DNA of 64,000 bases from an uncultured delta proteobacterium (GCA_963775425.1 CAVZJB010000017.1:160001-224000), one strand, 5' to 3'. Shown: positions 29,095 through 49,789, numbered from the stretch's first letter. The notes: generated by a model not told the origin, from the sequence alone. Program-made: numbers and translations.

Positions 29095-31023
29095 ATGTGC
29101 GGCATCGCTGGCATCTGGGATCGCGACGAGGCTCCTTCCCGTGATCGGCTGCGCGCCATGATCGGCGCCATCGCCCACCGCGGCCCCGACGGCGACGGCA
29201 TCCGGATCGATCCCCCTTGCGGACTGGCGCACGCACGGCTGGCCATCATCGACCTCGCCGGCGGCGCCCAACCCATGGTCGACGGCGACCTCGCCGTCAC
29301 CTTCAACGGCGAGATCTTCAACTTCGTCGAGCTGCGGCGCGAGCTGGAGGCACGCGGGCGCGTCTTCACCACCACCAGCGACACCGAGGTCATCCTCCAC
29401 GCGTACGCAGCCTGGGGCGACGCGTGCGTCGAGCGCATGAACGGCGACTTCGCGTTCGCGCTGTGGGACCGCGCCCGCCGACGCCTGTTCTGCGCGCGCG
29501 ACCGCGCCGGCGTGCGGCCGTTCTTCTATACGAAGACGAGTCACGGCCTCGTGTTCGCGTCGGAGGTGCGGGCGCTGTTCGCCGCGGGCGTCCCCGCGGC
29601 CTTCGATCCCCTCGGCCTCAGCGAGGTGTTGACGTTCTGGAACGCCCGCGCGCCGCGGACGGTGTGGCGCGGCGTGCAGGAGCTGCCGCCGGGCTGCACG
29701 TTGCTCGCCGACGACGACGGCGTCCGCGTCGCGCGCTATTGGCAGCTCGACTATCCGGCCGCGCGCGACGTCGCGCACCGGCGGGACGACGGCGACCGGG
29801 GCGATCTCGATGGGGCCGACGCGCGCGCCGCCGACGAGCTCCTCGCGCTGCTCGACGACGCCACCCGCATCCGGCTGCGCGCCGACGTGCCCGTGGGCGC
29901 GTACCTCTCGGGCGGCCTCGACTCCTCCGTGATCTCCGCGCTCGCGGCGCGGCACGTGCCGGCGTTGTCGACGTTCTCGGTGACGTTCGAGGAGCGGGAG
30001 TTTGACGAGAGCGCCTACCAGAACGTCGTGGCGCGCGCCCTCGGCACCGCGCATCACACCGTCATGATGAAGAACGGCGACGTCGCCGCGTCCTTCGCCG
30101 ACGTCGTCCGCGCCGCCGAGACCCCGCTCCTGCGCACCGCTCCTGCGCCGCTTTTGAAGCTCGCCGCGCTCGTGCGCGACTCGGGGATGAAGGTGGTGCT
30201 CACCGGCGAGGGCGCCGACGAGATGCTCGGCGGCTACGACATCTTCAAGGAAGCGAAGATCCGCCGCTTCTGCGCCCGACAGCCTTCGTCCGCGCTGCGC
30301 CCGCTGCTCCTGCAGCGGCTCTACCCGTGGATGCCGTCGTTGAAGACGCAGCCGGCGGCGTTCCTGCGCGCGTTCTTCTCCACCGGCGACGTCGACGACC
30401 CGCTCTACTCCCACCTGCCCCGCTGGCGCATGGCGTCGTCCTTGCGCGGCCTCCTCTCGCCCGACCTCGCTCGCGAGGTGGGCGGCTACGACCCGCTGCA
30501 GGCGCTCCGGGACGAGCTGCCCGCGCGCTTTTCGTCGTGGGAGCCGCTCGCCCAGGCGCAGTACCTCGAGGCCACCACGTTCCTGCCCGGCTACCTGCTG
30601 TCGTCGCAGGGCGATCGCGTGGCGATGGCGCACGCGGTGGAGGGGCGCTTCCCGTTCCTCGACGTCCGCGTCATCGAGCGCGCCGCGCAGATGCCGGCGC
30701 GACAGAAGATGCGGGTGCTTGACGAGAAGTACCTCTTGAAGCGCGCCGCGCGGGGTCTGGTGCCCGACAGCGTGATCGCGAGGACCAAGCAACCGTACCG
30801 CGCGCCGGACGCGCAGGCCTTCGCCGCGCTCACCCGCATCTTCGACGGCGTCCTCGCGCCGGATCGCATTCGCGCCGCCGGCGTCCTCGACGGGGAGGTG
30901 GTCCAGCGGCTCGTGGACCGGGTTCGCCGCGCCGGCTCCGCCAGCGCCAGGGACGGCATGGCGCTCAGCTTCGCCGTGTCGACGCAGGTGTGCTTCGACA
31001 CCTTCATCCAGAGGGAAACATGA
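29095..31023 (+). CDS. asnB: Asparagine synthase (glutamine-hydrolysing)-family amidotransferase
   Basis: MCGI, HRGPD, FNGEIFN, SDTEV, LSGGLDSS, GEGADE, GRFPFLD. Confidence 0.93.
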   Translation: MCGIAGIWDRDEAPSRDRLRAMIGAIAHRGPDGDGIRIDPPCGLAHARLAIIDLAGGAQPMVDGDLAVTFNGEIFNFVELRRELEARGRVFTTTSDTEVILHAYAAWGDACVERMNGDFAFALWDRARRRLFCARDRAGVRPFFYTKTSHGLVFASEVRALFAAGVPAAFDPLGLSEVLTFWNARAPRTVWRGVQELPPGCTLLADDDGVRVARYWQLDYPAARDVAHRRDDGDRGDLDGADARAADELLALLDDATRIRLRADVPVGAYLSGGLDSSVISALAARHVPALSTFSVTFEEREFDESAYQNVVARALGTAHHTVMMKNGDVAASFADVVRAAETPLLRTAPAPLLKLAALVRDSGMKVVLTGEGADEMLGGYDIFKEAKIRRFCARQPSSALRPLLLQRLYPWMPSLKTQPAAFLRAFFSTGDVDDPLYSHLPRWRMASSLRGLLSPDLAREVGGYDPLQALRDELPARFSSWEPLAQAQYLEATTFLPGYLLSSQGDRVAMAHAVEGRFPFLDVRVIERAAQMPARQKMRVLDEKYLLKRAARGLVPDSVIARTKQPYRAPDAQAFAALTRIFDGVLAPDRIRAAGVLDGEVVQRLVDRVRRAGSASARDGMALSFAVSTQVCFDTFIQRET

Positions 31024-31280
31024 ACCAGATCGCCGATCGCGTCAGCGAGTTCATCATCGCCAACCTGCTCCTCGGGAGGCAGAGCGACCTCGCCGCCACG
31101 CCGAGCTTCCTCGAGGCGGGCATCATCGACTCCACCGGTGTGCTCGAGCTCGTGCAGTTCCTCGAGGAGACGTGGGCGATCGAGGTCACCGACGCCGAGA
31201 TGCTGCCCGACAACCTCGACTCGCTCGACAAGATCGAGCGCTTCGTGCGTTCGAAGACCTTGTCGGCGGCCGCCCAATGA
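31020..31280 (+). CDS. Acyl/aminoacyl carrier protein
   Basis: GIIDSTG (DltC-like) motif; ATGA overlap. Confidence 0.9.
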   Translation: MNQIADRVSEFIIANLLLGRQSDLAATPSFLEAGIIDSTGVLELVQFLEETWAIEVTDAEMLPDNLDSLDKIERFVRSKTLSAAAQ

Positions 31281-32962
31281 CCACGGCGATGTGGCTCGAG
31301 TCGTTCCTGGAAGAGAGCGCGCGGCGAACCCCCGACAAGACCGCGGTCGTCTGCGGGCAGGAGCGGGCGACGTACGCCGACATCGAGCGCGCCGCCAACC
31401 GCCTCGCCCGGCGCCTGCGGGCGCGCGGCGTCGCGCGCGGCGACCGCGTCGCCGTCTGCCTCGAAAACGGCGTACCGAACGCGACGACGCTGTTCGCGGT
31501 GTGGAAGGCGGGCGCGGCGGCGGTGCTCGTGAACCCCGCGTCCAAGCCGGACAAGATCGAGCGCATCCTCGACGACGCCGGGGCCGCGGCCCTCGTCGCG
31601 GGCCCGCGCACGCTGGCCGCGTACCTCGAGGACGCGTCCGGGCCCACCGCGCCCACGCCCGACGATGCTTCTCGTGTCGCGCGCGGGCTCCCGGCCGTCG
31701 TCATCGTGGCGGGCGGGCGGCTCGGCGACTTCGAAGCGTTCGAAGACGTCGTCGCGAGCGGTGACGACACGCCGCCGGAGAAGGCGCACATCGATCTCGA
31801 CCTCGCCGTGCTCCTGTACACCTCCGGGTCCACAGGCATGCCCAAGGGCGTGATGCACACGCACGCGTCGCTCATGTCCGCCACGCGCTCCATCGTCCAC
31901 TACCTCGACAACACCGCCGCCGACGTCATCCTGCAGGTGCTCCCGCTGTCGTTCGGCTACGGCCTCATGCAGTGGCTGTCCGTCGCCTGCACCGGCGCCA
32001 CGCTGGTGCTCGAGAAGTCGTTCGCGTTCCCGCAGGTGTCGCTGCAGAAGATCGCGGGCGAGCGCGTCACCGGCATCGCCATGGTGCCGACTGTGGCCGC
32101 GCTCTTCATCGAAAACGGCTTGCGCGAGGGCGGCCCCCACGACGTCAGCTCGCTGCGCTACGTCACCAACGCCGGCGCGGGCATGCCCGTGACGCTGGTG
32201 CGCCGGGTGCGTCGAGCGCTGCCGAGCGTGAAGCTCGTGTTGATGTACGGGCAGACGGAGTGCATCCGCGCGTCCTACCTGCCGCCGGAGGACGTGGACC
32301 GCCGCCCCGACGCCGTCGGACGCGGCATCCCCAACCAGGAGACGTGGCTCGTCGACGAGGACGGCACGCGCGTCGACGTCGGCGTCGGCGAGATGGTGGT
32401 GCGCGGCGCGCACGTGATGCGCGGCTACTGGCGGCGGCCCGAAGCCACCGAGCAGAAGCTCCGCCCCGGGCCGCTGCCGGGCGAGCGCGTGCTCCACACG
32501 GGCGATCTGTTCCGGCGCGACGAGGAGGGCCTCTTCTCCTTCGTCGCGCGCAAGGACGACATCATCAAGACGCGTGGCGAGAAGGTGAGCCCCAAGGAGG
32601 TCGAGGACGTCCTGCTCGCCGTCCCCGGCGTCGAAGACGCCGCCGTCGCCGGCGTCGAAGACGCGCTCCTCGGCGAAGCCGTGCGCGCGTGGGTGGTTTC
32701 TGCCGGCGGGGCGGAGCTCGAGGAGCGCGCCGTGCTGCGGGCGTGCCGGGACAAGCTCGAGGACTTCGCGGTGCCCAAGCGCGTGATCGTCGTGGACGCG
32801 CTGCCGAAGAGCCTGAACGGAAAGATCGACAAGCGGGCCCTCGTGGCCACGGCGGCGGCGCGCGCGCCGCAGACGACGACAACGACGACGACGACAACGA
32901 CGACGACGACGCGCCCGACGACGACCTCGACGGGGCCGACGCGAGCATGGCGGTCCGAGTGA
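31277..32962 (+). CDS. AMP-forming acyl-CoA/acyl-ACP ligase
   Basis: YTSGSTGMPKG, MYGQTE, HTGD, RKDD, PKSLNGKIDK; poly-Thr tail. Confidence 0.92.
   Translation: MTTAMWLESFLEESARRTPDKTAVVCGQERATYADIERAANRLARRLRARGVARGDRVAVCLENGVPNATTLFAVWKAGAAAVLVNPASKPDKIERILDDAGAAALVAGPRTLAAYLEDASGPTAPTPDDASRVARGLPAVVIVAGGRLGDFEAFEDVVASGDDTPPEKAHIDLDLAVLLYTSGSTGMPKGVMHTHASLMSATRSIVHYLDNTAADVILQVLPLSFGYGLMQWLSVACTGATLVLEKSFAFPQVSLQKIAGERVTGIAMVPTVAALFIENGLREGGPHDVSSLRYVTNAGAGMPVTLVRRVRRALPSVKLVLMYGQTECIRASYLPPEDVDRRPDAVGRGIPNQETWLVDEDGTRVDVGVGEMVVRGAHVMRGYWRRPEATEQKLRPGPLPGERVLHTGDLFRRDEEGLFSFVARKDDIIKTRGEKVSPKEVEDVLLAVPGVEDAAVAGVEDALLGEAVRAWVVSAGGAELEERAVLRACRDKLEDFAVPKRVIVVDALPKSLNGKIDKRALVATAAARAPQTTTTTTTTTTTTTRPTTTSTGPTRAWRSE
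32872..32928 (+). repeat. (ACG/ACA)n microsatellite encoding a poly-Thr tail
   Basis: acgacgacaacgacgacgacgacaacgacgacgacgacg... Confidence 0.85.
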
Positions 32963-32975
32963 CCCGGAGGATGAA

Positions 32976-33959
32976 GTGAGCCTGAACATGGACGCTCTTC
33001 GCATCGACACCAAGGCCACGGCCGACGCCATCGCCGAGCGCATGCGCGGCATCGTCTCCGACGTCCTCAAGAAGCGCGGCATCGTCGTCGGGTTGTCCGG
33101 CGGCATCGACTCGAGCGCCACCGCCGGGCTCGCGGTGCGCGCCCTCGGGCCCGATCGGGTCGTGGGCCTGTTGATGCCGGAGAGCGAGAGCGCCGACGAG
33201 ACGCTCGGCATCTCGCAGCGCGTGGGCGACGCGCTCGGCATCGAGACGATCCACGAGGACATCACGCCCATCCTTCGATCGGTGCGCGCCTACGAGCGCA
33301 GGGACACCGCCATCGCGCGCTGCGTCCCGGGTTACGGCCCCGGGTGGAAGAGCAAGATCGTGCTGCCGAACCTCCTCGAGAGCGACGCGCTGCGCTTCTA
33401 CTCGGTGGTGGCCAGGAGCCCGGACGGTGCGGTGTCGCGGACGCGCTTGAGCCCGGCCGCGTACCTGGAGGTGGTGGCGGCCACCAACTTCAAGCAGCGC
33501 ATCCGCAAGATGCTCGAGTACTTCCACGCCGACCGCCTCAACTACGCGGTGGCGGGCACGCCCAACAGGCTCGAGTACGACCAGGGCTTCTTCGTGAAGG
33601 GCGGCGACGGCCTCGGCGACGTCAAGCCCATCGCGCACCTGTACAAACAGCAGGTGTACGCCGTGGCCGCGGAGGTCGGGGTGCCCGAGGAGGTGCTGCG
33701 CCGGCGGCCCACGACGGACACGTACTCGCTGCCGCAGACCCAAGACGACTTCTACTTCTCGCTCCCCTACGAGCAGATGGACCTCTGCCTCTGGGGCAAG
33801 AACCACGGCGTCGCGGCCGCCGAGGTGGCGAGCGCGCTCTCGCTGCAGGACGAGCAGATCGAGCGCGTCTACCGGGACATCGAGCAGAAGCGCCGCACCA
33901 CCCGTCCGCTGCACTTGAACGCCGTCCTCATCGAGGACGTTTTGGAGATTCATCGATGA
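32976..33959 (+). CDS. nadE: NH3-dependent NAD synthetase-like ATP pyrophosphatase
   Basis: GLSGGIDSS, NFKQRIR, GTPNRLE, GFFVKGGDG, PIAHLYKQQV. Confidence 0.85.
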   Translation: MSLNMDALRIDTKATADAIAERMRGIVSDVLKKRGIVVGLSGGIDSSATAGLAVRALGPDRVVGLLMPESESADETLGISQRVGDALGIETIHEDITPILRSVRAYERRDTAIARCVPGYGPGWKSKIVLPNLLESDALRFYSVVARSPDGAVSRTRLSPAAYLEVVAATNFKQRIRKMLEYFHADRLNYAVAGTPNRLEYDQGFFVKGGDGLGDVKPIAHLYKQQVYAVAAEVGVPEEVLRRRPTTDTYSLPQTQDDFYFSLPYEQMDLCLWGKNHGVAAAEVASALSLQDEQIERVYRDIEQKRRTTRPLHLNAVLIEDVLEIHR

Positions 33960-42790: not shown

Positions 42791-43483
42791 GTGAAGATCC
42801 CCTCCTCCTGGACCGCGGCTGTCGGCGCCGAGTTGGACAAGCCGTACTTCCGCTCGCTCTCCGCGTTCCTCGACACCGAGCGCGCGCACAAGACCGTGTT
42901 CCCGCCGGCGAGAGACGTGTTCCGCGCCCTCGAGGTCACGCCGTTTGCCGACGTGCGCGTGCTGCTCCTCGGGCAGGACCCGTACCACGACGACGGCCAG
43001 GCGCATGGCCTGTGCTTCTCGGTGAAGCCGCCCACCCGGCCGCCGCCGTCGTTGAAGAACATCTTCAAGGAGCTGCAGACAGACCTCGGCTGCACGCCGC
43101 CCGAGCACGGCGATCTCACGGCGTGGGCGCGCCAGGGCGTGCTGCTGTTGAACGCGGTGCTCACCGTCGAGGCCCACCGCGCCAACTCCCACAAGGGCAA
43201 GGGTTGGGAGACGTTCACCGACGCCGTCATCGCCAGCCTGAACGCGCGGGAGACGCCGCTCGTCTTCTGCCTCTGGGGCGCGTACGCGCGCAAGAAGGCC
43301 AAGCTCGTCGACACCTCGCGCCACACCGTCATCGAGGGCGCGCACCCGTCGCCGCTGTCGATGAAGAAGTTCTTCGGCAGCAAGCCGTTCTCCGCAATCA
43401 ACGGGGCCCTCGCCGCCCAAGGACACCAGCCCATCACGTGGCAACTGGACGCACGGCCCCTCTCCCCGGTCGCGCACTCGTGA
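42791..43483 (+). CDS. ung: Uracil-DNA glycosylase (family 1)
   Basis: GQDPYH, AHGLCFSV, PPSL, QGVLLLN, HPSPLS all intact. Confidence 0.96.
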   Translation: MKIPSSWTAAVGAELDKPYFRSLSAFLDTERAHKTVFPPARDVFRALEVTPFADVRVLLLGQDPYHDDGQAHGLCFSVKPPTRPPPSLKNIFKELQTDLGCTPPEHGDLTAWARQGVLLLNAVLTVEAHRANSHKGKGWETFTDAVIASLNARETPLVFCLWGAYARKKAKLVDTSRHTVIEGAHPSPLSMKKFFGSKPFSAINGALAAQGHQPITWQLDARPLSPVAHS

Positions 43484-45057
43484 GCGCCGCCGACCCCACC
43501 GATACGCTCGAGCTCACGCCGTTGTTCGACGGCGGCGGCGAGCCCTGGCTTCCCCTGTTGAAGCCCGTCATCGAGAAGCAACGCGACGCGGGCGACTTCA
43601 TCGGCCCCGGGCGCGACAAGGGCATCGTGCCCGTGCGCGAGCTGACGTTCCAGGCGCTCAAGCCCAACCCGCCCGGCAAGTGGCGCGTGGTGATCTTCGG
43701 GCAGAACCCGTACCCGCGCGTGGAGTCGGCGACGGGCATCGCCATGTTCGACAACGCCTTCGCCGACTGGAAGGAACCCCAGTTCGGCAAGGTCACCTCC
43801 ATCCGCTGCATCATCAAAGCGGCGTGCATGAACAAGCTCGGCATCGAGAAGGCCACCTCCACCGCCGCCATCCGGTCGCTCCTCGCCAAAAACGACGTCG
43901 TCACGCCGCCCCAGTGGTTCCAGGCCATGCTCACCCAGGGCGTGCTCTTGTTGAACGCTGCGCTCACCGCGAGCAGCGACAACGCGGTGTCCACCTCGCG
44001 CCACACGAGCTTCTGGAAGCCCGTCGTGGAGGCGGTGGTCACCGAGATCCTGCGCGCCAAGCACGAACAGAAGGAGGGTGTGGTCTTCGCCTGGTGGGGC
44101 GCGCACGCAAAGCTCCTGCGCGCCATGGTGGACAAGATCGCGCCGCGGTTCCCCGACGCCGTCGTCCGCCACGTCGACCACTGCAACCCCGCGGCGCAGG
44201 GGGACATGTTCTGCAACAAGGACCACTTCGGCGAGATCAACGCGGCGCTGTCGTCGCTGTCGATGAAGCCCGTGGACTGGCTGCCGGTGCAGGGCGGTGA
44301 CCTCGGCGCAGGCCAGGACGAGCACAAGCGCCTCGGCGACTTCATCGAGAGCACGCGCGAGCTGCACAAGCTCTACCTCGAGCGTCTCCAGGGCGTCGGC
44401 GACGAGCAGCTCGAGGAGCTCGAGGCCATCACGGGCCTCGCCACGCTCTCCGTCCCCACGTTGCCGGCGGCGGTGGAGCCGCTCCTCGCGCTGTTCCCCG
44501 GGCTCAAGCTGTTCGCGAAGAAGGCGGCGGAGCGCGCGCCGGAGCTGTTGAAGGCGGCGGCGGTGCCCGGGCTCACCGCCGACGAGGTGGGCGCGCTCTT
44601 CCTGTACACGACGGAGTCGCCGCTGTACCGCTCGCTGAACGCCGCGCTTCGCGACAAGAGCCGCGCGAAGGCGGAGCCGTGGCACGGCTACCTGCGGTTG
44701 TTCCTGAGCGCCCATGACAAGCTCGAGCGGCGCAACGAGAGCCTCTGGCGCGGCGTGCACAAGGACCTGCGCAAGGAGTACCCCACGGGCCGCACCGTCA
44801 CGTGGTGGGGCGTGTCGTCATGCACGACCAAGCTGGCGGTGGCCAAGGGCTTCCTCGGCCAGAAGGGCAAGCGGATGCTGTTCGAGGTCAAGCCCAGGAG
44901 CGCCGTGAGCATCCGCGCGTTCTCGGCGTTCACCGGTGAAGAGGAGCTCGTGTTGGCCCCCGGCACGAGCTTCTCCGTCGTCGACGTCGCCCCCGGCGAC
45001 GACGGCCTCGTTCACGTGAAGCTCGAGGAGCTCGAGCAGGAAAGGCTCATCCGCTGA
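43480..45057 (+). CDS. Fusion of a divergent family-1 UDG-like domain and an R-S-E (cholera-toxin-like) mono-ADP-ribosyltransferase domain (525 aa)
   Basis: N-terminus: VVIFGQNPYP, ATGIAMF, QGVLLLNAALT, VFAWWG, HCNPAA, FGEINAAL, PVDW. C-terminus: ALFLYT..LYRSLNAALR, LWRG, VSSCT, GEEELVLAPG. GTGA overlap with ung. Confidence 0.88.
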   Translation: MSAADPTDTLELTPLFDGGGEPWLPLLKPVIEKQRDAGDFIGPGRDKGIVPVRELTFQALKPNPPGKWRVVIFGQNPYPRVESATGIAMFDNAFADWKEPQFGKVTSIRCIIKAACMNKLGIEKATSTAAIRSLLAKNDVVTPPQWFQAMLTQGVLLLNAALTASSDNAVSTSRHTSFWKPVVEAVVTEILRAKHEQKEGVVFAWWGAHAKLLRAMVDKIAPRFPDAVVRHVDHCNPAAQGDMFCNKDHFGEINAALSSLSMKPVDWLPVQGGDLGAGQDEHKRLGDFIESTRELHKLYLERLQGVGDEQLEELEAITGLATLSVPTLPAAVEPLLALFPGLKLFAKKAAERAPELLKAAAVPGLTADEVGALFLYTTESPLYRSLNAALRDKSRAKAEPWHGYLRLFLSAHDKLERRNESLWRGVHKDLRKEYPTGRTVTWWGVSSCTTKLAVAKGFLGQKGKRMLFEVKPRSAVSIRAFSAFTGEEELVLAPGTSFSVVDVAPGDDGLVHVKLEELEQERLIR

Positions 45058-46385
45058 TGCAGCTCCCCAGCTTTCTCCGCCCCCTCCCCGACGCTCCACG
45101 CATCGCCGACGCCCAGCGCGCGGACAAGGCCTTTCGCTCCACGCGCATCGGCATCCTGGTGGCGCTCACCATCGTCTACGGCTTCTTCTACACGTGCCGC
45201 ATCGGCCTCTCCGTCGTCAAGAAGCCGCTGCTTGACGCCGGCATCTTCAACGCCACGGAGCTCGGCCAGATCGGCGCCTGCCTGTTGTGGGGCTACGCCC
45301 TCGGCAAGCTCATCAACGGCGTGTTCGCCGATCGCGTGAACGTCTCGCGCTTCATCCCCCTCGGCCTGGCGCTCTCCGCGGTGGCCAACCTGGCCATGGG
45401 CAGCAACTCGCTGTTCGTCGTCGCGTGCCTGTTGTGGGTGGTGAACGGCCTGTGCCAGGGCGTCGGCGCCACGGCGAGCGTGGTGAGCCTCACGCAGTGG
45501 TTCTCCGGCAGCGAGCGCGGGCGCGTATACGGCATCTGGAGCGCGGCGCACTCCGTCGGCGAGGGCATGACCTTCTTCGGGACCTCCGCGCTCGTCGCCG
45601 CCATGGGTTGGCGCGCGGGCTTCCTCGGGCCCGGCGGCGTCTGCCTCGTCATCGCGTGCGGCGCCGCGCTCGTGTTGAAGGACCGCCCGCAGGCGTACGG
45701 CCTGCCGCCCGTGTCGGACTGGAAGGGCGAGCCGCACGAGGAGAAGTCCGCGTCGACGCGCGCGGCCCAGCTCGAGGTGGTGAAGAACCCGGCCATCTGG
45801 GTCTGCGCCATCGCGTCCGCGCTCATGTACGTGTCGCGCTACGCGGTGAACAACTGGGGCGTGCTCTACCTGCAGGAGGCGCGCGGCTACACCCTCATCG
45901 AGGCGGGCAGCATCGTCGGCATCAACACCATCGCCGGCTTCATCGGCTCCGCCGCCTACGGGTTCATCTCCGACCTCGGCTTCAAGGGGCGCCGGCCGCC
46001 CGCCACGTTCCTCTTCGGGTTCGTCGAGGTTCTCGCGCTCTTCGTGATCTACTACGGGCCCAGGAGCACCGTGCTGTTGTCGGTGGCGTTCTTCGTCTAC
46101 GGGTTCACGATGTCGGGCATCCTCGCGGTGCTCGGCGGACTGTTCGCCGTGGACCTGTCGTCCAAGCGGGCCGCGGGCATGGCCATGGGCTTCGTGGGCT
46201 TCATCTCGTACGTCGGCGCCACCGCGCAGGACCTCGTGTCGGGCTACCTCATCGACCTCGGCACCCACACGGTGAACGGCGTGAAGCACATCGACTTCAC
46301 CATCCCCATCATCGGCTGGGTGGGGGCGTCGGTGCTGAGCATGCTGCTGGCGGCCACCCTCTGGAAGGTCCGCACCAGGGAGTGA
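45057..46385 (+). CDS. MFS organophosphate:Pi antiporter (GlpT/UhpT family)
   Basis: YGFFYTCR, YALGKL, QWFSGSERG..IWSAAH, DRPQAYGLPP, YVSRYA; 12 TM. Confidence 0.9.
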   Translation: MQLPSFLRPLPDAPRIADAQRADKAFRSTRIGILVALTIVYGFFYTCRIGLSVVKKPLLDAGIFNATELGQIGACLLWGYALGKLINGVFADRVNVSRFIPLGLALSAVANLAMGSNSLFVVACLLWVVNGLCQGVGATASVVSLTQWFSGSERGRVYGIWSAAHSVGEGMTFFGTSALVAAMGWRAGFLGPGGVCLVIACGAALVLKDRPQAYGLPPVSDWKGEPHEEKSASTRAAQLEVVKNPAIWVCAIASALMYVSRYAVNNWGVLYLQEARGYTLIEAGSIVGINTIAGFIGSAAYGFISDLGFKGRRPPATFLFGFVEVLALFVIYYGPRSTVLLSVAFFVYGFTMSGILAVLGGLFAVDLSSKRAAGMAMGFVGFISYVGATAQDLVSGYLIDLGTHTVNGVKHIDFTIPIIGWVGASVLSMLLAATLWKVRTRE

Positions 46386-46441
46386 CACCGTTTCCTCGGG
46401 GTGCGCATTGCGGTCGGCGGCGGCCCCGGTAGCGTTCGCGC

Positions 46442-47437
46442 ATGAAGAAGCTGTTGCTCCTCGGGGCCGGCCGCATCGGCCAGGTCCACGCGCGAAACGT
46501 CCTCGCGAGCGGCGCCGCTCGCCTGGTGGGCGTCGTCGACGTCAACCGCGCCGCCGCCGAAGCGCTCGCCGAGGCCACGGGCGCGCGCGTGTTCGACAGC
46601 GCCGACGCCGCCCTCGACACCGCCGACGTGCAAGGCGTGATGATCTGCACGTCCACGGATACGCACGTCGACATGATCCTCAAAGCGGCGGCGCGCACGC
46701 TCCCGGTGTTCTGCGAGAAGCCCGTCGACCTGGCCATGGCGAAGGTGCAGCGCTGCCTCGCGGAGGTGAAGTCCGCCGGCGTCCCGTTGCTGATGGGCTT
46801 CAACCGCCGCTTCGACCCGAGCTTCAAGTCGCTGCACGACCGCCTGCGCGAGATCGGCTCCGTGGAGGCCGTGGCCATCACGAGCCGCGACCCGCAGCCG
46901 CCGCCGCCGGCGTACGTGAAGACGTCCGGCGGCATCTTCCGCGACATGATGATCCACGACCTCGACATGGCCCGCTTCCTCCTCGGCGACGAGCCCGTCG
47001 AGGTCTTCGCCACCGGCGCCGCCCTCGTCGATCCCGAGATCGGCAAGGCCGGCGACGTCGACACCGCCACGGTGGTGCTGCGCACCGCGCGCGGCGCCAT
47101 GGTCACCATCCACAACAGCCGCCGCGCGGTCTACGGCTACGACCAACGCATCGAGGTCTTCGGCGAGAAGGGTGCGCTGTTCGCAGGCAACCCCACGCCC
47201 ACCACGGTGGTCAGGCTCGGCGCCGACGGCGCCGTCGGCGACAAGCCGCTGCACTTCTTCCTCGAGCGCTACGCCGACGCCTACCGCGCCGAGCTCGCCC
47301 ACTTCCTCGACGTCATCGACGGGAAGGCCGCGCCGCTCGTGACCGGCGAAGACGGCCGCCGCGCGCTCGCCCTGGCCGACGCGTGCGAGGCCTCGTTGCG
47401 CTCGAAGAGCGCCGTGGCCGTCGGGGTGTCGTCGTGA
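46442..47437 (+). CDS. iolG: myo-Inositol 2-dehydrogenase
   Basis: GAGRIG, CEKP, GFNRRFDP, TSRDP, SGGIFRDMMIHD, YGYDQR, FFLERY. Confidence 0.92.
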   Translation: MKKLLLLGAGRIGQVHARNVLASGAARLVGVVDVNRAAAEALAEATGARVFDSADAALDTADVQGVMICTSTDTHVDMILKAAARTLPVFCEKPVDLAMAKVQRCLAEVKSAGVPLLMGFNRRFDPSFKSLHDRLREIGSVEAVAITSRDPQPPPPAYVKTSGGIFRDMMIHDLDMARFLLGDEPVEVFATGAALVDPEIGKAGDVDTATVVLRTARGAMVTIHNSRRAVYGYDQRIEVFGEKGALFAGNPTPTTVVRLGADGAVGDKPLHFFLERYADAYRAELAHFLDVIDGKAAPLVTGEDGRRALALADACEASLRSKSAVAVGVSS

Positions 47438-48114
47438 GCCTCGACGCGGTCTTTCGCGGGTTTCACATCGCCGCGGGCGGGATCGCGCTCGGCTCGATGT
47501 GGATCCCGATGTTCGCCAAGAAGGGCGGCCTGCTCCACCGCCGCGCCGGCTGGGTCTACGCCGTGGCCATGTGGGTGGCAGCGCTCTTCGCGTGGGTGGT
47601 CTGCGCCGGGCGTCTCCTCGACCAGAAGCCGGCCAACGACCACAACGCGCTGTTCCTCGCGTTCGTCGGGCTGCTCGCCGCCAACAACGCCGCCGTCGGT
47701 GTGCGCGTGCTCCGCAGCAGGGGGCGGACCGACAAGCCCGCCGGTGCGCTCGACGTGGCGATGAGCGCGCTGCTCCTCGTCGGCAGCGTCGGCCTGGCGG
47801 TGCTCGGCGTCACCGGCGGCCGCATCCTCGACGACGTCTTCGCCGCCCTCGGCGTGTTCCTGTCCCTCCGTCAGCTCCGGTTCTGGCTGCGGCCGCCGGC
47901 GCTGAAACAGCAGTGGTGGCTCGAGCACATGGGCAACATGCTCGCGTCGTGCATCGGCACGGCCACGGCGTTCCTCGTCGTCAACGCCGGGCACCTGGGG
48001 CTGTCCGGTCCTGCCGTGCTCGTCGTGTGGATCGCCCCCGGCGTCGTCGGCGCCTTCGGCATCCGCGTCTGGACGCAGCGCTACCGCAAGCGCTTCACCA
48101 AGGGGGCCGCTTGA
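47434..48114 (+). CDS. DUF2306-like His-containing membrane protein
   Basis: HIAAG..KKGG..HRRAGWVY; WWLEHMGNM..IGTATAF. Confidence 0.7.
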   Translation: MSLDAVFRGFHIAAGGIALGSMWIPMFAKKGGLLHRRAGWVYAVAMWVAALFAWVVCAGRLLDQKPANDHNALFLAFVGLLAANNAAVGVRVLRSRGRTDKPAGALDVAMSALLLVGSVGLAVLGVTGGRILDDVFAALGVFLSLRQLRFWLRPPALKQQWWLEHMGNMLASCIGTATAFLVVNAGHLGLSGPAVLVVWIAPGVVGAFGIRVWTQRYRKRFTKGAA

Positions 48115-48890
48115 ACACCAGGCTCGACGGGCGCGTCGTCATCGTCACCGGGAGCACGCAGGGGCTCGGCGAAGCCGTCGCGCTCGCCTGCGGCGACGAG
48201 GGCGCCGCGGGGGTGGTGGTCACGGGCCGAAGCGAGGCAAGGGGCCGCGCCGTCGCGGAGGCGCTCGAGCAAAAGGGCGCGCGAGCGCTGTTCGTGCGCG
48301 CCGACCTCGAGGACGTCGACGACTGCCGCGCCGTCGTCGCACGCGCGGCGGACCGGTTCGGACGCGTCGACGGCCTGGTGAACAGCGCGGCCACCACCGC
48401 GCGCGGTCACCTCGACGACACGTCCGTGGAGCTGTGGGACCGGGTGATGGCGTTGAACGTCCGCGCGCCGTTCGTAATCACGCAGGAGGCCGTGCGTGTG
48501 ATGAAGGCCGGCGGCCGCGGCGGAAGCATCGTGAACATCCTGTCCATGAGCGCCAACGGCGGTCAGCCATTTCTGTGCGCGTATTCGACGTCGAAGGGCG
48601 CGCTCGCCACGCTCACCAAGAACAACGCCCACGCGCTGCGCAAGGACCGCATCCGCGTGAACGGGCTGCGCATCGGGTGGATGGAGACGCCGGGCGAGCA
48701 CGCCGTCCAGGCCTCCGACGGCGCGGCCGCGGACTGGCTCGCGCGCGCGGCGGCGGCGCAGCCCTTCGGTCGCATCCTGCGCACGGGCGACGTCGCCGGC
48801 TTGTGCACGTGGCTCTTGTCCGACGCCGGCGCCATGATGACGGGGTCGCTCATCGACTTCGATCAGAACGTCGTCGGCGCGTACGATTGA
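48111..48890 (+). CDS. Short-chain dehydrogenase/reductase
   Basis: TGSTQGLG, LVNSAA, YSTSK, IRVN; TTG start overlaps the upstream stop. Confidence 0.92.
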   Translation: MNTRLDGRVVIVTGSTQGLGEAVALACGDEGAAGVVVTGRSEARGRAVAEALEQKGARALFVRADLEDVDDCRAVVARAADRFGRVDGLVNSAATTARGHLDDTSVELWDRVMALNVRAPFVITQEAVRVMKAGGRGGSIVNILSMSANGGQPFLCAYSTSKGALATLTKNNAHALRKDRIRVNGLRIGWMETPGEHAVQASDGAAADWLARAAAAQPFGRILRTGDVAGLCTWLLSDAGAMMTGSLIDFDQNVVGAYD

Positions 48891-48937
48891 GCGACGACGG
48901 AGCTCCGCCGGGCGCGTGCGGGTATCATCGAGCGCGC

Positions 48938-49789
48938 ATGACCTCCCGCACGCCTCGCCTCGCGCTGTTCGACCTCGACGGCACCCTCTTGACGTCGAAG
49001 CGCACCATCCTCGAGGACAACGTGCGGGCGCTGCGGCGCTTGATGGACGCCGGCGTGCTCGTGGCGTTTTGCACCGGAAGGCCGCCGGGGAGCGCGCAGC
49101 GGTATGTCGACGTCGTGAGACCCAACGCGCCGCTCATCCACTTCAACGGCGCGGTCGTGCGCGACGCCGCCGACGGCCGCGTCATCTTCTCGCGCTCGGT
49201 TCCCGCGGACACGGCGCTGGCGGCGCTGGTGGCGGCCGACGGTCACGCGCGCCACGCCAACATCTATGTCGGCGACGCCATCTGGATCGAGCGACGCTCC
49301 GAGACCTCGCGCGTCTCCGAGGAGAAGGACGGCGTGGCGCACACCGTCGTCCCGGACCTCCGAGGCCGCCTGAGCGCCGGCGGCGGCGCGCTCACCGGCG
49401 GCGCGCGCTCGAGCGCCGGGGACGTCCGGCCGACCAAGGTCATGCTCATCGCCGACGCCCCGCGCGTCCCCGCCATGACGGCAGCCGTCTCCGCGTCCGT
49501 CGGCGACGGCGCCGCGCTGGTCAACTCCGAGCCCGAGTACCTCGAGGTGCTCCCGCGCGGCGTCTCCAAGAAGACCGCGGCGGAGGCGCTGTGCGGGCAC
49601 CTCGGCCTCACGCTCAACGACGTCGTCGCTTTCGGCGACAACCTCAACGACCTCGATCTCCTGGTCGCCTGCGGCCGCGGCGTCGCCATGAGCAACAGCC
49701 ACCCCGAGGTGCTCGCGCGCGTCTCCGCGCACATCGGCGACAACGACAGCGACGCCATCGCCCGCTTCCTCGACGAGCTCTTCGCTTGA
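48938..49789 (+). CDS. Cof-type HAD IIB phosphatase
   Basis: DLDGTLL, CTGR, NGA, GVSK, FGDNLND. Confidence 0.92.
   Translation: MTSRTPRLALFDLDGTLLTSKRTILEDNVRALRRLMDAGVLVAFCTGRPPGSAQRYVDVVRPNAPLIHFNGAVVRDAADGRVIFSRSVPADTALAALVAADGHARHANIYVGDAIWIERRSETSRVSEEKDGVAHTVVPDLRGRLSAGGGALTGGARSSAGDVRPTKVMLIADAPRVPAMTAAVSASVGDGAALVNSEPEYLEVLPRGVSKKTAAEALCGHLGLTLNDVVAFGDNLNDLDLLVACGRGVAMSNSHPEVLARVSAHIGDNDSDAIARFLDELFA

Follow-up and report, generated by a model that had tools for sequence, protein, structure and literature searches.

The window analysed here, a 64,000-nucleotide stretch (~71% G+C) from an uncultured delta proteobacterium (GCA_963775425.1 CAVZJB010000017.1:160001-224000), carries at positions 42791-45057 a uracil-DNA glycosylase gene, ung, followed by a gene for a 525-amino-acid (aa) protein that joins a uracil-DNA glycosylase (UDG)-like domain to an ADP-ribosyltransferase (ART) domain, an architecture referred to below as UDG-ART. 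Our favoured reading, held with about as much belief as doubt, casts the 525-aa protein as a lesion-directed writer of ADP-ribosyl marks that would follow a PARP-like logic, with a macrodomain as its eraser or reader. The analysis established the identities of the domains, the loss of the catalytic Asp from the UDG-like half, the linkage of the family to a macrodomain and the presence of a DNA-damage promoter motif in front of the actinomycete homologues. Numbers preceded by G, C, L and P designate genomes, contigs, loci and proteins, respectively. The two genes and their parts are located in the window as follows.

42791-43483, + strand: ung, complete family-1 uracil-DNA glycosylase, 230 aa (NCBIfam ung equivalogs, E 1.8e-92)
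42971-42988, + strand: GQDPYH of ung, motif read from the sequence
43343-43360, + strand: HPSPLS of ung, motif read from the sequence
43480-43483, + strand: GTGA overlap, in which the TGA stop of ung shares bases with the GTG start of the fusion gene
43480-45057, + strand: pseudo-UDG-ART fusion gene, 525 aa (profile, alignment and structure-model matches)
43537-44289, + strand: family-1-type UDG fold, residues ~20-270, with a ~50-residue insertion (closest solved relative, N. salsuginis UNG)
43699-43719, + strand: GQNPYPR, water-activating loop, carrying Asn (N76) where family-1 enzymes have the catalytic Asp
43945-43968, + strand: LLLNAALT (N159), aligning with LLLNAVLT of Ung
44179-44202, + strand: HCNPAAQG, counterpart of HPSPLS, with the His kept and the intercalating Leu replaced by Ala
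44290-44559, + strand: helical linker joining the UDG fold to the helices at the start of the ART module (helices 279-304 and 328-360 in the AlphaFold2 model)
44560-45054, + strand: R-S-ExE mono-ADP-ribosyltransferase domain (Pfam PF01129, E 1.6e-14)
44743-44754, + strand: LWRG (R424), ART catalytic motif
44815-44826, + strand: SSCT (S446-T449), ART motif
44935-44946, + strand: GEEE (E487, E489), ExE of the ARTT loop

The first gene encodes an intact family-1 enzyme, as the original prediction, made from the sequence of the window, had stated: its score against NF003589, an NCBIfam ung equivalog with a cut-off of 223, was 309 bits, and both GQDPYH and HPSPLS were present. Its predicted overlap with the 525-aa gene through GTGA was confirmed at 43480-43483. 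Gene calling based on G+C content at third codon positions (GC3) gave identical starts for the two genes, and the N-termini of homologues aligned with the GTG start of the second. The overlap suggests that ung and the fusion gene are translationally coupled.

In the second gene, the original prediction had distinguished a divergent family-1 UDG fold (N-terminal ~270 aa) and a C-terminal R-S-E ART, and the fold comparison proposed for both halves recovered both. Residues ~20-270 matched ung models with E-values from 9e-22 to 1e-13, all under the model cut-offs (Pfam, 17.7 bits versus 24.3; NCBIfam, 77.9 versus 162), and shared 25% identity with the adjacent Ung (BLASTP, E 7e-13). This low identity ruled out a recent tandem duplication of ung. 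The UDG-like half has neither the general-base Asp (GQNPYPR) nor the intercalating Leu (HCNPAAQG) of Ung. The AlphaFold2 model of the 525-aa protein (predicted local distance difference test, pLDDT, 81.7; predicted template modelling score, 0.65) was matched by Foldseek to N. salsuginis UNG (5x3h; template modelling score, TM, 0.73) and to the ARTs Vis, Tre1 (TM 0.77), XopAI, ART2.2 and ExoS, with a Foldseek probability of 1.00 for Vis, Tre1, ART2.2 and ExoS. When a profile was searched against PDB sequences, the best match was 5x3g_A (E 9.9e-17), with which the ~50-residue insertion and the pattern G-Q-x-P-Y-P-R-x-E-S-A-x-G were held in common; the ART half matched Vis, Tre1 and ART2.2.

The C-terminal assignment also held at the level of motifs. 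Pfam ART PF01129 was detected at residues 363-520 with 54.3 bits (gathering cut-off, 22.3); the R, S-x-S and ExE elements were found in LWRG, SSCT and GEEE where they had been placed originally, and R424, S446, S447, E487 and E489 were invariant in 37 sequences. This half is of the R-S-E type (cholera-toxin-like, ARTC-type), for which NAD+-dependent transfer to arginine is predicted from the motif. The model reached a pLDDT of ~90 from residue 310 onward, in the linker and ART, and this module (residues ~297-525) recurs with different partner domains in other proteins.

Position 76, at which family-1 enzymes carry their general-base Asp, was occupied by Asn in all 37 aligned family members. 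A census based on 193 representatives and longer forms yielded 58 proteins in which an ART and the motif region were both present; in these, the residue was Asn (45 proteins), Ser (7), Ala (5) or Met (1) and never Asp; six close relatives that keep the Asp had no detected ART part. N159 of LLLNAALT, the counterpart of the Asn that reads the Watson-Crick edge of uracil in Ung, was invariant in the 37 aligned members, as were N236, P237, A238 and A239 of HxNPAAQG, with H234 and Y78 nearly so. Two relatives fused to a kinase, one of them from Thecamonas trahens, also had Asn at the catalytic position. The loss of the cutting residue in both the ART-fused and the kinase-fused types, with at least the LLN-type Asn retained in the pocket, is what would be expected of a damage-reading module, and the occurrence of Ser, Ala and Met speaks against a requirement for Asn itself. 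Laboratory Asp-to-Asn mutants of UNG serve as probes for uracil-DNA. Judging from these residues, sensing rather than catalysis is the probable function of the UDG-like half, and the sensor role originally assigned to it is retained at that strength.

Asn is, however, the working residue at the Asp position of MUG/TDG and SMUG1, which are slow glycosylases that remain bound to their product. By analogy, the 525-aa protein could be a bifunctional repair enzyme, in which an active, slow Asn-type glycosylase stays on its abasic product while the ART modifies a repair partner or the protein itself, so handing over the site. The strict conservation of Asn in bacterial members (37 out of 37) and its occurrence in 45 ART-fused proteins, the conservation of H234 and N159, and the links to ung and to a repair regulon described below would all suit such an enzyme. 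We nevertheless consider it quite improbable: the 13 ART-fused members out of 58 with Ser, Ala or Met argue that what matters is the absence of Asp, no ART part was detected in the Asp-bearing members of the subfamily, and all the ung equivalog models scored under their cut-off.

A macrodomain (Pfam PF01661, E ~1e-10) accompanied UDG-ART in all 28 actinomycete loci searched by tblastn. In 22 of these loci it was fused in frame at the N-terminus, each gene being a single open reading frame of 751-799 aa that encodes, in order, the macrodomain, a Pro/Ala linker, the UDG-like domain and the ART. In the other six (L004, L005, L008, L016, L020 and L023) it was divergent and directly upstream, and the same divergent arrangement was present at a metagenome locus (L046). 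NCBI annotation showed Macro and ART in one protein for 118 of the 120 proteins most closely related to the macrodomain part. An invariant 16-mer upstream of 17 Streptomyces genes, which had come up as a possible operator in a LexA-box scan, proved to lie in frame within the coding region of the fused macrodomain. Structure modelling of the macrodomain (pLDDT 78) gave matches to yeast Ymx7, DarG macrodomains (TM 0.73), macroH2A and MacroD2; at E ≤ 0.01 the domain had no match among PDB sequences, and its class is read from the fold match only.

The 64-kb window itself contained no macrodomain (tblastn) and no ADP-ribosylhydrolase (ARH), as originally noted. Outside the window, contig C4 of the same genome encodes an orthologue of the actinomycete macrodomain (52% identity, E 6.5e-66). 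It is located (L051:2-3519, minus strand) immediately downstream of a WGR-PARP_reg-PARP protein and upstream of a HEAT-repeat protein, in an operon whose products measure 472 aa (PARP), 240 aa (macrodomain protein) and at least 456 aa (HEAT-repeat protein), and the PARP-macrodomain pair recurred in all nine loci of related genomes. The use of one macrodomain subfamily as partner of either a WGR-PARP or a UDG-like ART suggests analogous roles for the two writers. The autoinhibition that had been deduced from the lack of a macrodomain in the window is weakened by the 28 actinomycete loci and by the C4 orthologue beside the PARP. Within the phylum sample, the macrodomain was present in three of the four UDG-ART genomes and also in eight sampled genomes without UDG-ART.

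The actinomycete homologues carry a predicted RecA-NDp (PafBC) damage promoter, of the kind that does not depend on RecA. The pattern scanned was TGTCRGTG-N8-TAnnnT, which we take to be the RecA-NDp consensus and which was checked empirically in a Streptomyces genome (G301); only exact matches were counted. The motif started 58-81 nt before the start codon in each of the 22 fused genes, and was found 51-64 nt before the divergent macrodomain gene in four of the six loci with that arrangement; it was absent in L005, L016 and L046. The control genome G301 contained 37 exact sites, versus none for the reversed pattern, including one 56 nt upstream of recA and one just upstream of ung. The genes that follow 28 of the first 30 of these sites include those for RecA, RuvC, UvrB-, UvrD- and RecQ-type proteins, Ung and Macro-UDG-ART, together with an AlkZ-like glycosylase, an ExoIII-like nuclease, a DNA polymerase III subunit and a WGR protein. 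A further genome, G303, had 27 sites, one of them at the macrodomain gene. In the relevant passages of earlier work, PafBC acts through RecA-NDp to switch on the main DNA-damage response of actinobacteria (PMC6789036, PMC8223512), and the motif drives the UV-inducible macrodomain SCO6735 (PMC5087735, PMC9411070).

Two side observations concern upstream sequences. Many predicted starts at the G301 loci (L063-L092) lie only 6-7 nt past the -10 element, which suggests leaderless transcripts at the RecA-NDp sites. In the genome of the window, a perfect CTGT-N8-ACAG palindrome is located upstream of lexA (C4, ~93.6 kb), and TGAACAAGTGTTCA, of the GAAC-N4-GTTC type and different from the lexA palindrome, upstream of recA (C16, ~904.9 kb).

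Based on these features, the 525-aa protein would act in the cytoplasm, writing ADP-ribosyl marks at DNA lesions. Its UDG-like half, without the general-base Asp and with the residues that hold a flipped uracil kept, most likely reads a uracil-like base or remains at such a site without fast excision. Lesion binding would place the R-S-ExE ART on the damaged DNA, where it would ADP-ribosylate a nearby target, by its motif a protein arginine, possibly in the protein itself or in another DNA-bound protein. A dedicated macrodomain, fused or adjacent in actinomycetes and beside a PARP on another contig here, would then read or remove the mark. The logic would be that of PARP1 and its eraser, built from other parts and aimed at base lesions rather than breaks; lesion binding, activation by DNA and the target are predictions from sequence. 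PARP-like, damage-dependent ADP-ribosylation had been offered originally as an alternative, and it is the reading that fits best, given the motif in 22 out of 22 fused genes and the WWE, SAP, PBZ and PARP modules of protist homologues.

A broader proposal is made more tentatively, as a possibility that we rate clearly below the first: bacteria and several protists may have a second, PARP-independent form of DNA-damage ADP-ribosylation signalling, in which a non-cutting reader with a glycosylase fold, directed at uracil or similar base lesions, recruits an R-S-E ART to the site and a macrodomain erases the product. In actinomycetes, a single chain controlled by the PafBC regulon would then combine writer, reader and eraser. 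A repair or nucleoid protein may receive the mark, or else uracil-DNA itself; in the latter case the mark would be a naturally occurring analogue, on DNA, of the ADP-ribosylation of uracil bases that was described recently.

Several points weigh against a lesion-directed writer. By analogy with MUG/TDG and SMUG1, the UDG-like domain may still cut slowly. The intercalating Leu has been lost, the Pro-rich loop is remodelled and the pLDDT is low at residues 83-91, all of which bear on a DNA-binding capacity that is itself presumed from the fold. The motif was found at ung in one of the two genomes checked (present in G301, none in G303), and the region upstream of the window ung contained no lexA- or recA-type box and nothing in common with that of L026, the Acidobacteria locus described below. 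All the promoter evidence comes from actinomycetes, from which damage induction in the organism of the window would be an extrapolation. As to the macrodomain, G131, a genome that is 89% complete and has UDG-ART, gave no match, and no macrodomain was present in cis outside actinomycetes, either at the six loci L001, L002, L003, L026, L044 and L094 or in the window. Moreover, its presence in many genomes without UDG-ART implies that in the phylum of the window it is foremost a partner of PARP.

The macrodomain also raises the question of the substrate. The ART could modify DNA, either a base (e.g. at N3 of uracil or thymine), an abasic site or an end near the lesion, with the macrodomain serving as a DNA de-ADP-ribosylase like DarG or TARG1. 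The macrodomain model matched DarG macrodomains with a TM of 0.73. According to the passages concerned, SCO6735, which is under RecA-NDp control, strips thymidine-linked ADP-ribose from DNA, its endogenous transferase being not known (PMC9411070), and recent work describes both the ADP-ribosylation of uracil bases and erasers resembling TARG1 (PMC13036486). The matches of the ART half nevertheless point elsewhere, to Vis, Tre1, ART2.2, ExoS and C3, with no pierisin-family chain at E ≤ 0.01 or among the Foldseek matches listed. The ExE signature is that of arginine-specific ARTs, whereas the guanine-specific DNA ARTs pierisin, ScARP and Scabin have QxE. The lack of any PDB sequence match for the macrodomain at E ≤ 0.01 indicates that it is not a close relative of SCO6735 or DarG, and a base held inside the UDG pocket would be inaccessible to a second active site. 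We therefore regard DNA as an unlikely substrate.

To return to the proposed lesion-directed writer, its family proved to be large. A word-indexed search gave 1130 relatives at E ≤ 1e-3; the best 120 of these were 57-100% identical to the query, nearly all across 97-100% of its length. Relatives came from Sandaracinus, Gemmataceae, Streptomyces, Nonomuraea, Micromonospora and others, under the source names 'ADP-ribosyltransferase domain-containing protein' or 'uracil DNA glycosylase'. Cluster representatives were also searched exhaustively with HMMER, which gave 4343 matches at E ≤ 1e-3, 93 of them at E ≤ 1e-30. With more than 1000 relatives showing UDG-ART, misassembly of the fusion was ruled out. 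The original statement that no characterised system has this architecture held: full-text literature searches, whose scope did not extend to the supplementary lists of PafBC regulon studies, found no description of it, and the words 'uracil' and 'glycosylase' are both absent from the accessible text of a 2021 review of bacterial ADP-ribosylation systems (PMC8120803).

Longer architectures were also observed. VWA-UDG-ART (~1045 aa, with ~300 aa between VWA and UDG) was represented by 40 proteins (P0283-P0321 and P0123), e.g. from Urbifossiella, and at one such locus (L094:8433-11690) no macrodomain, PARP or ung was present within ~9 kb. A single protein of 862 aa (P0030) has a histone-deacetylase-family domain (PF00850) in front of UDG-ART, which may reflect either a genuine fusion or an error of gene calling. 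SAP-UDG-ART was found as well, and WWE-UDG-ART (~975 aa) was found in a diatom and in transcripts of marine eukaryotes. Eukaryotic proteins also join the linker and ART module to WWE, PBZ, PARP, LRR, WW or tyrosine-phosphatase domains, and P0190, from the protist Thecamonas trahens, and P0196 have an Asn-type UDG-like domain fused to a Ser/Thr protein kinase, with no ART. That protists combine this reader with WWE, SAP, PBZ or kinase partners suggests that it serves several signalling outputs.

The distribution of UDG-ART was patchy. It was detected in 4 of 301 genomes in the phylum of the window, in 2 of 401 in the phylum of G302, and in 58 of 301 species genomes (about a fifth) of the Streptomyces-containing genus of G301. 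Four large actinomycete replicons of a plasmid collection carried full-length copies, and a metagenome scan gave 2 loci. In G353, G558 and G576, three of the 58 carriers in the genus of G301, the match fell into two adjacent pieces, and these copies may be frameshifted.

Such a spread bears on the function first proposed for the 525-aa protein, that of an anti-phage sensor-effector whose UDG-like domain senses uracil-containing phage DNA or an Ung inhibitor and whose ART then causes abortive infection. In such a system the macrodomain, at loci that have one, would be an antitoxin in cis, as DarG is for DarT. The patchiness suggests horizontal transfer, identity is ~60% across phyla, three of the 58 Streptomyces copies look split, and the putative system is a single gene with an ART fold of the toxin type. 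A macrodomain combined with an ART, its model matching DarG macrodomains, also recalls DarTG, a toxin-antitoxin pair and anti-phage system according to the passages concerned (PMC9411070). The expected enrichment in defence islands was, however, not observed: PADLOC matched neither protein to any family at E ≤ 1 and matched 4 of the 115 neighbours in 30 loci, and none of 50,697 phage records contained a full-length UDG-ART. Among the neighbours of homologues, the commonest Pfam families were major facilitator superfamily (MFS) transporters, helix-turn-helix regulators and hydrolases, with no integrase or phage family among the 25 commonest listed, and in the window the context consists of metabolic and secreted-protein genes. 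Furthermore, the promoter motif also precedes recA, ruvC and a gene of the UvrB type, the homologues in protists have WWE, SAP, PBZ or kinase domains, and linkage to ung was seen in only 2 of 36 contexts. N. salsuginis UNG, the closest solved relative, is reportedly not inhibited by the Ung inhibitor Ugi, which we also count against a role in phage sensing. Overall, such a role seems to us improbable, to about the same degree as modification of DNA.

We see very little room for a secreted or contact-delivered toxin, in which the UDG-like part would serve as a carrier or targeting domain. The ART fold does resemble those of Tre1, Vis, XopAI and ExoS. Pfam detected only the UDG and ART domains, with no PAAR, Rhs, LXG or other trafficking domain; the initial sequence reading gave no signal peptide, and no conserved downstream immunity gene was present among the neighbours of homologues. 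The damage-regulon promoter and the fused macrodomain point instead to use in the cytoplasm, and of all the explanations considered this one appears the least credible by far.

Pairing with ung turned out to be rare, contrary to the conserved ung and UDG-ART pair that had been envisaged. A true ung adjoined UDG-ART in one of 32 species-genome loci (L026, from an Acidobacteria metagenome-assembled genome, with the same GTGA junction as the window), and overall the pairing was seen in the window and in one of 35 other contexts. No adjacent ung was found in L044, L094 or L046, the last having only 1.2 kb of upstream sequence. The window and L026 belong to one well-supported clade of 12 rows (99/95), whose sister clade holds a member without ung; the pairing may be a trait of this 12-row clade, in which contexts were examined for two rows. 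The genome of the window has a second bona fide ung (contig C9:389046-389660, locus L045; 230 bits), and the window ung, which is 68% identical to that of L026 and 47% identical to the C9 paralogue in its own genome, is an extra copy. Coupling to an extra ung fits the theme of uracil repair. A complex prediction for Ung and UDG-ART (score 0.00, mark 0.32) gave no answer either way.

Downstream, the fusion gene is followed immediately by a transporter gene.

45057-46385, + strand: MFS transporter gene, whose ATG overlaps the fusion stop by 1 base (TGATG), not 4

The MFS gene is not a conserved partner, MFS_1 having been matched in 6 of the 115 neighbours of homologues. It opens a packed run on the + strand (45057-49789; MFS, GFO/IDH/MocA oxidoreductase, membrane protein, SDR and HAD phosphatase) in which starts and stops overlap and which looks like a sugar or inositol-type catabolic cluster. 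Other neighbours of the pair in the window encode a thioesterase, an outer-membrane protein, a metallopeptidase, a CAP protein and a lipoprotein. Farther upstream (29158-33959, + strand), four predicted genes on the same strand, encoding 621, 86, 561 and 327 aa, have overlapping or abutting ends.

ADP-ribosylation is central to the eukaryotic DNA-damage response; to our knowledge, endogenous bacterial ADP-ribosyl writers linked to DNA damage are almost unknown. In the relevant passages of PMC9411070, only three transferases are listed as characterised in S. coelicolor, and the transferase that opposes the damage-inducible SCO6735 is given as not known. The UDG-ART family offers a clonable candidate for such a writer, with a putative lesion reader, writer and eraser in one gene behind the same promoter motif as recA. 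If our reading is correct, the family would show how nature can convert a glycosylase fold into a reader of damage, and the UDG-like domain might serve as a ready-made sensor of uracil-DNA.

Compared with characterised proteins, the UDG-like half is closest to N. salsuginis UNG, with which it shares the fold (TM 0.73), the best PDB profile match, the insertion, G-Q-x-P-Y-P-R-x-E-S-A-x-G, the Tyr of that motif and the Asn of LLNxxLT. The solved enzyme has GQDPYPR and stands alone, whereas the window protein has Asn in that loop, Ala in place of the intercalating Leu, and a fused ART. The ART half is similar in Pfam family, motifs and fold to the known R-S-ExE enzymes (PF01129 ecto-ARTs, Vis, Tre1 of Tre1-Tri1, and ExoS/ExoT). 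These are secreted, injected or extracellular; UDG-ART, by contrast, has a putative lesion reader and no trafficking module, its partner is a macrodomain rather than an ARH immunity protein, and its actinomycete forms have a damage promoter.

DarT-DarG likewise pairs an ART with a macrodomain, and the macrodomain model resembles those of DarG; control by RecA-NDp is shared between the actinomycete fused genes and, according to the passages concerned, SCO6735 (PMC5087735, PMC9411070). UDG-ART is nevertheless not DarTG-like, its ART being PF01129, matched to DarT by neither Pfam nor fold search, with a UDG-like domain present and no macrodomain in the window. The UDG-ART macrodomain also differs from those of DarG and SCO6735 in having no sequence-level PDB match, and it forms one chain with the ART in 22 loci.

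A further comparison is with PARP1-type systems and the bacterial operons of WGR-PARP and macrodomain. The UDG-ART clade differs from these in being R-S-E rather than H-Y-E, in having a UDG-fold sensor instead of WGR or zinc fingers, and in its presumed mono-ADP-ribosylation. The combination of a damage-reading domain with an ART and a macrodomain partner is nevertheless common to both, as a prediction in the case of UDG-ART, and the macrodomain of the WGR-PARP operon belongs to the same subfamily (52% identity) that partners UDG-ART in actinomycetes.

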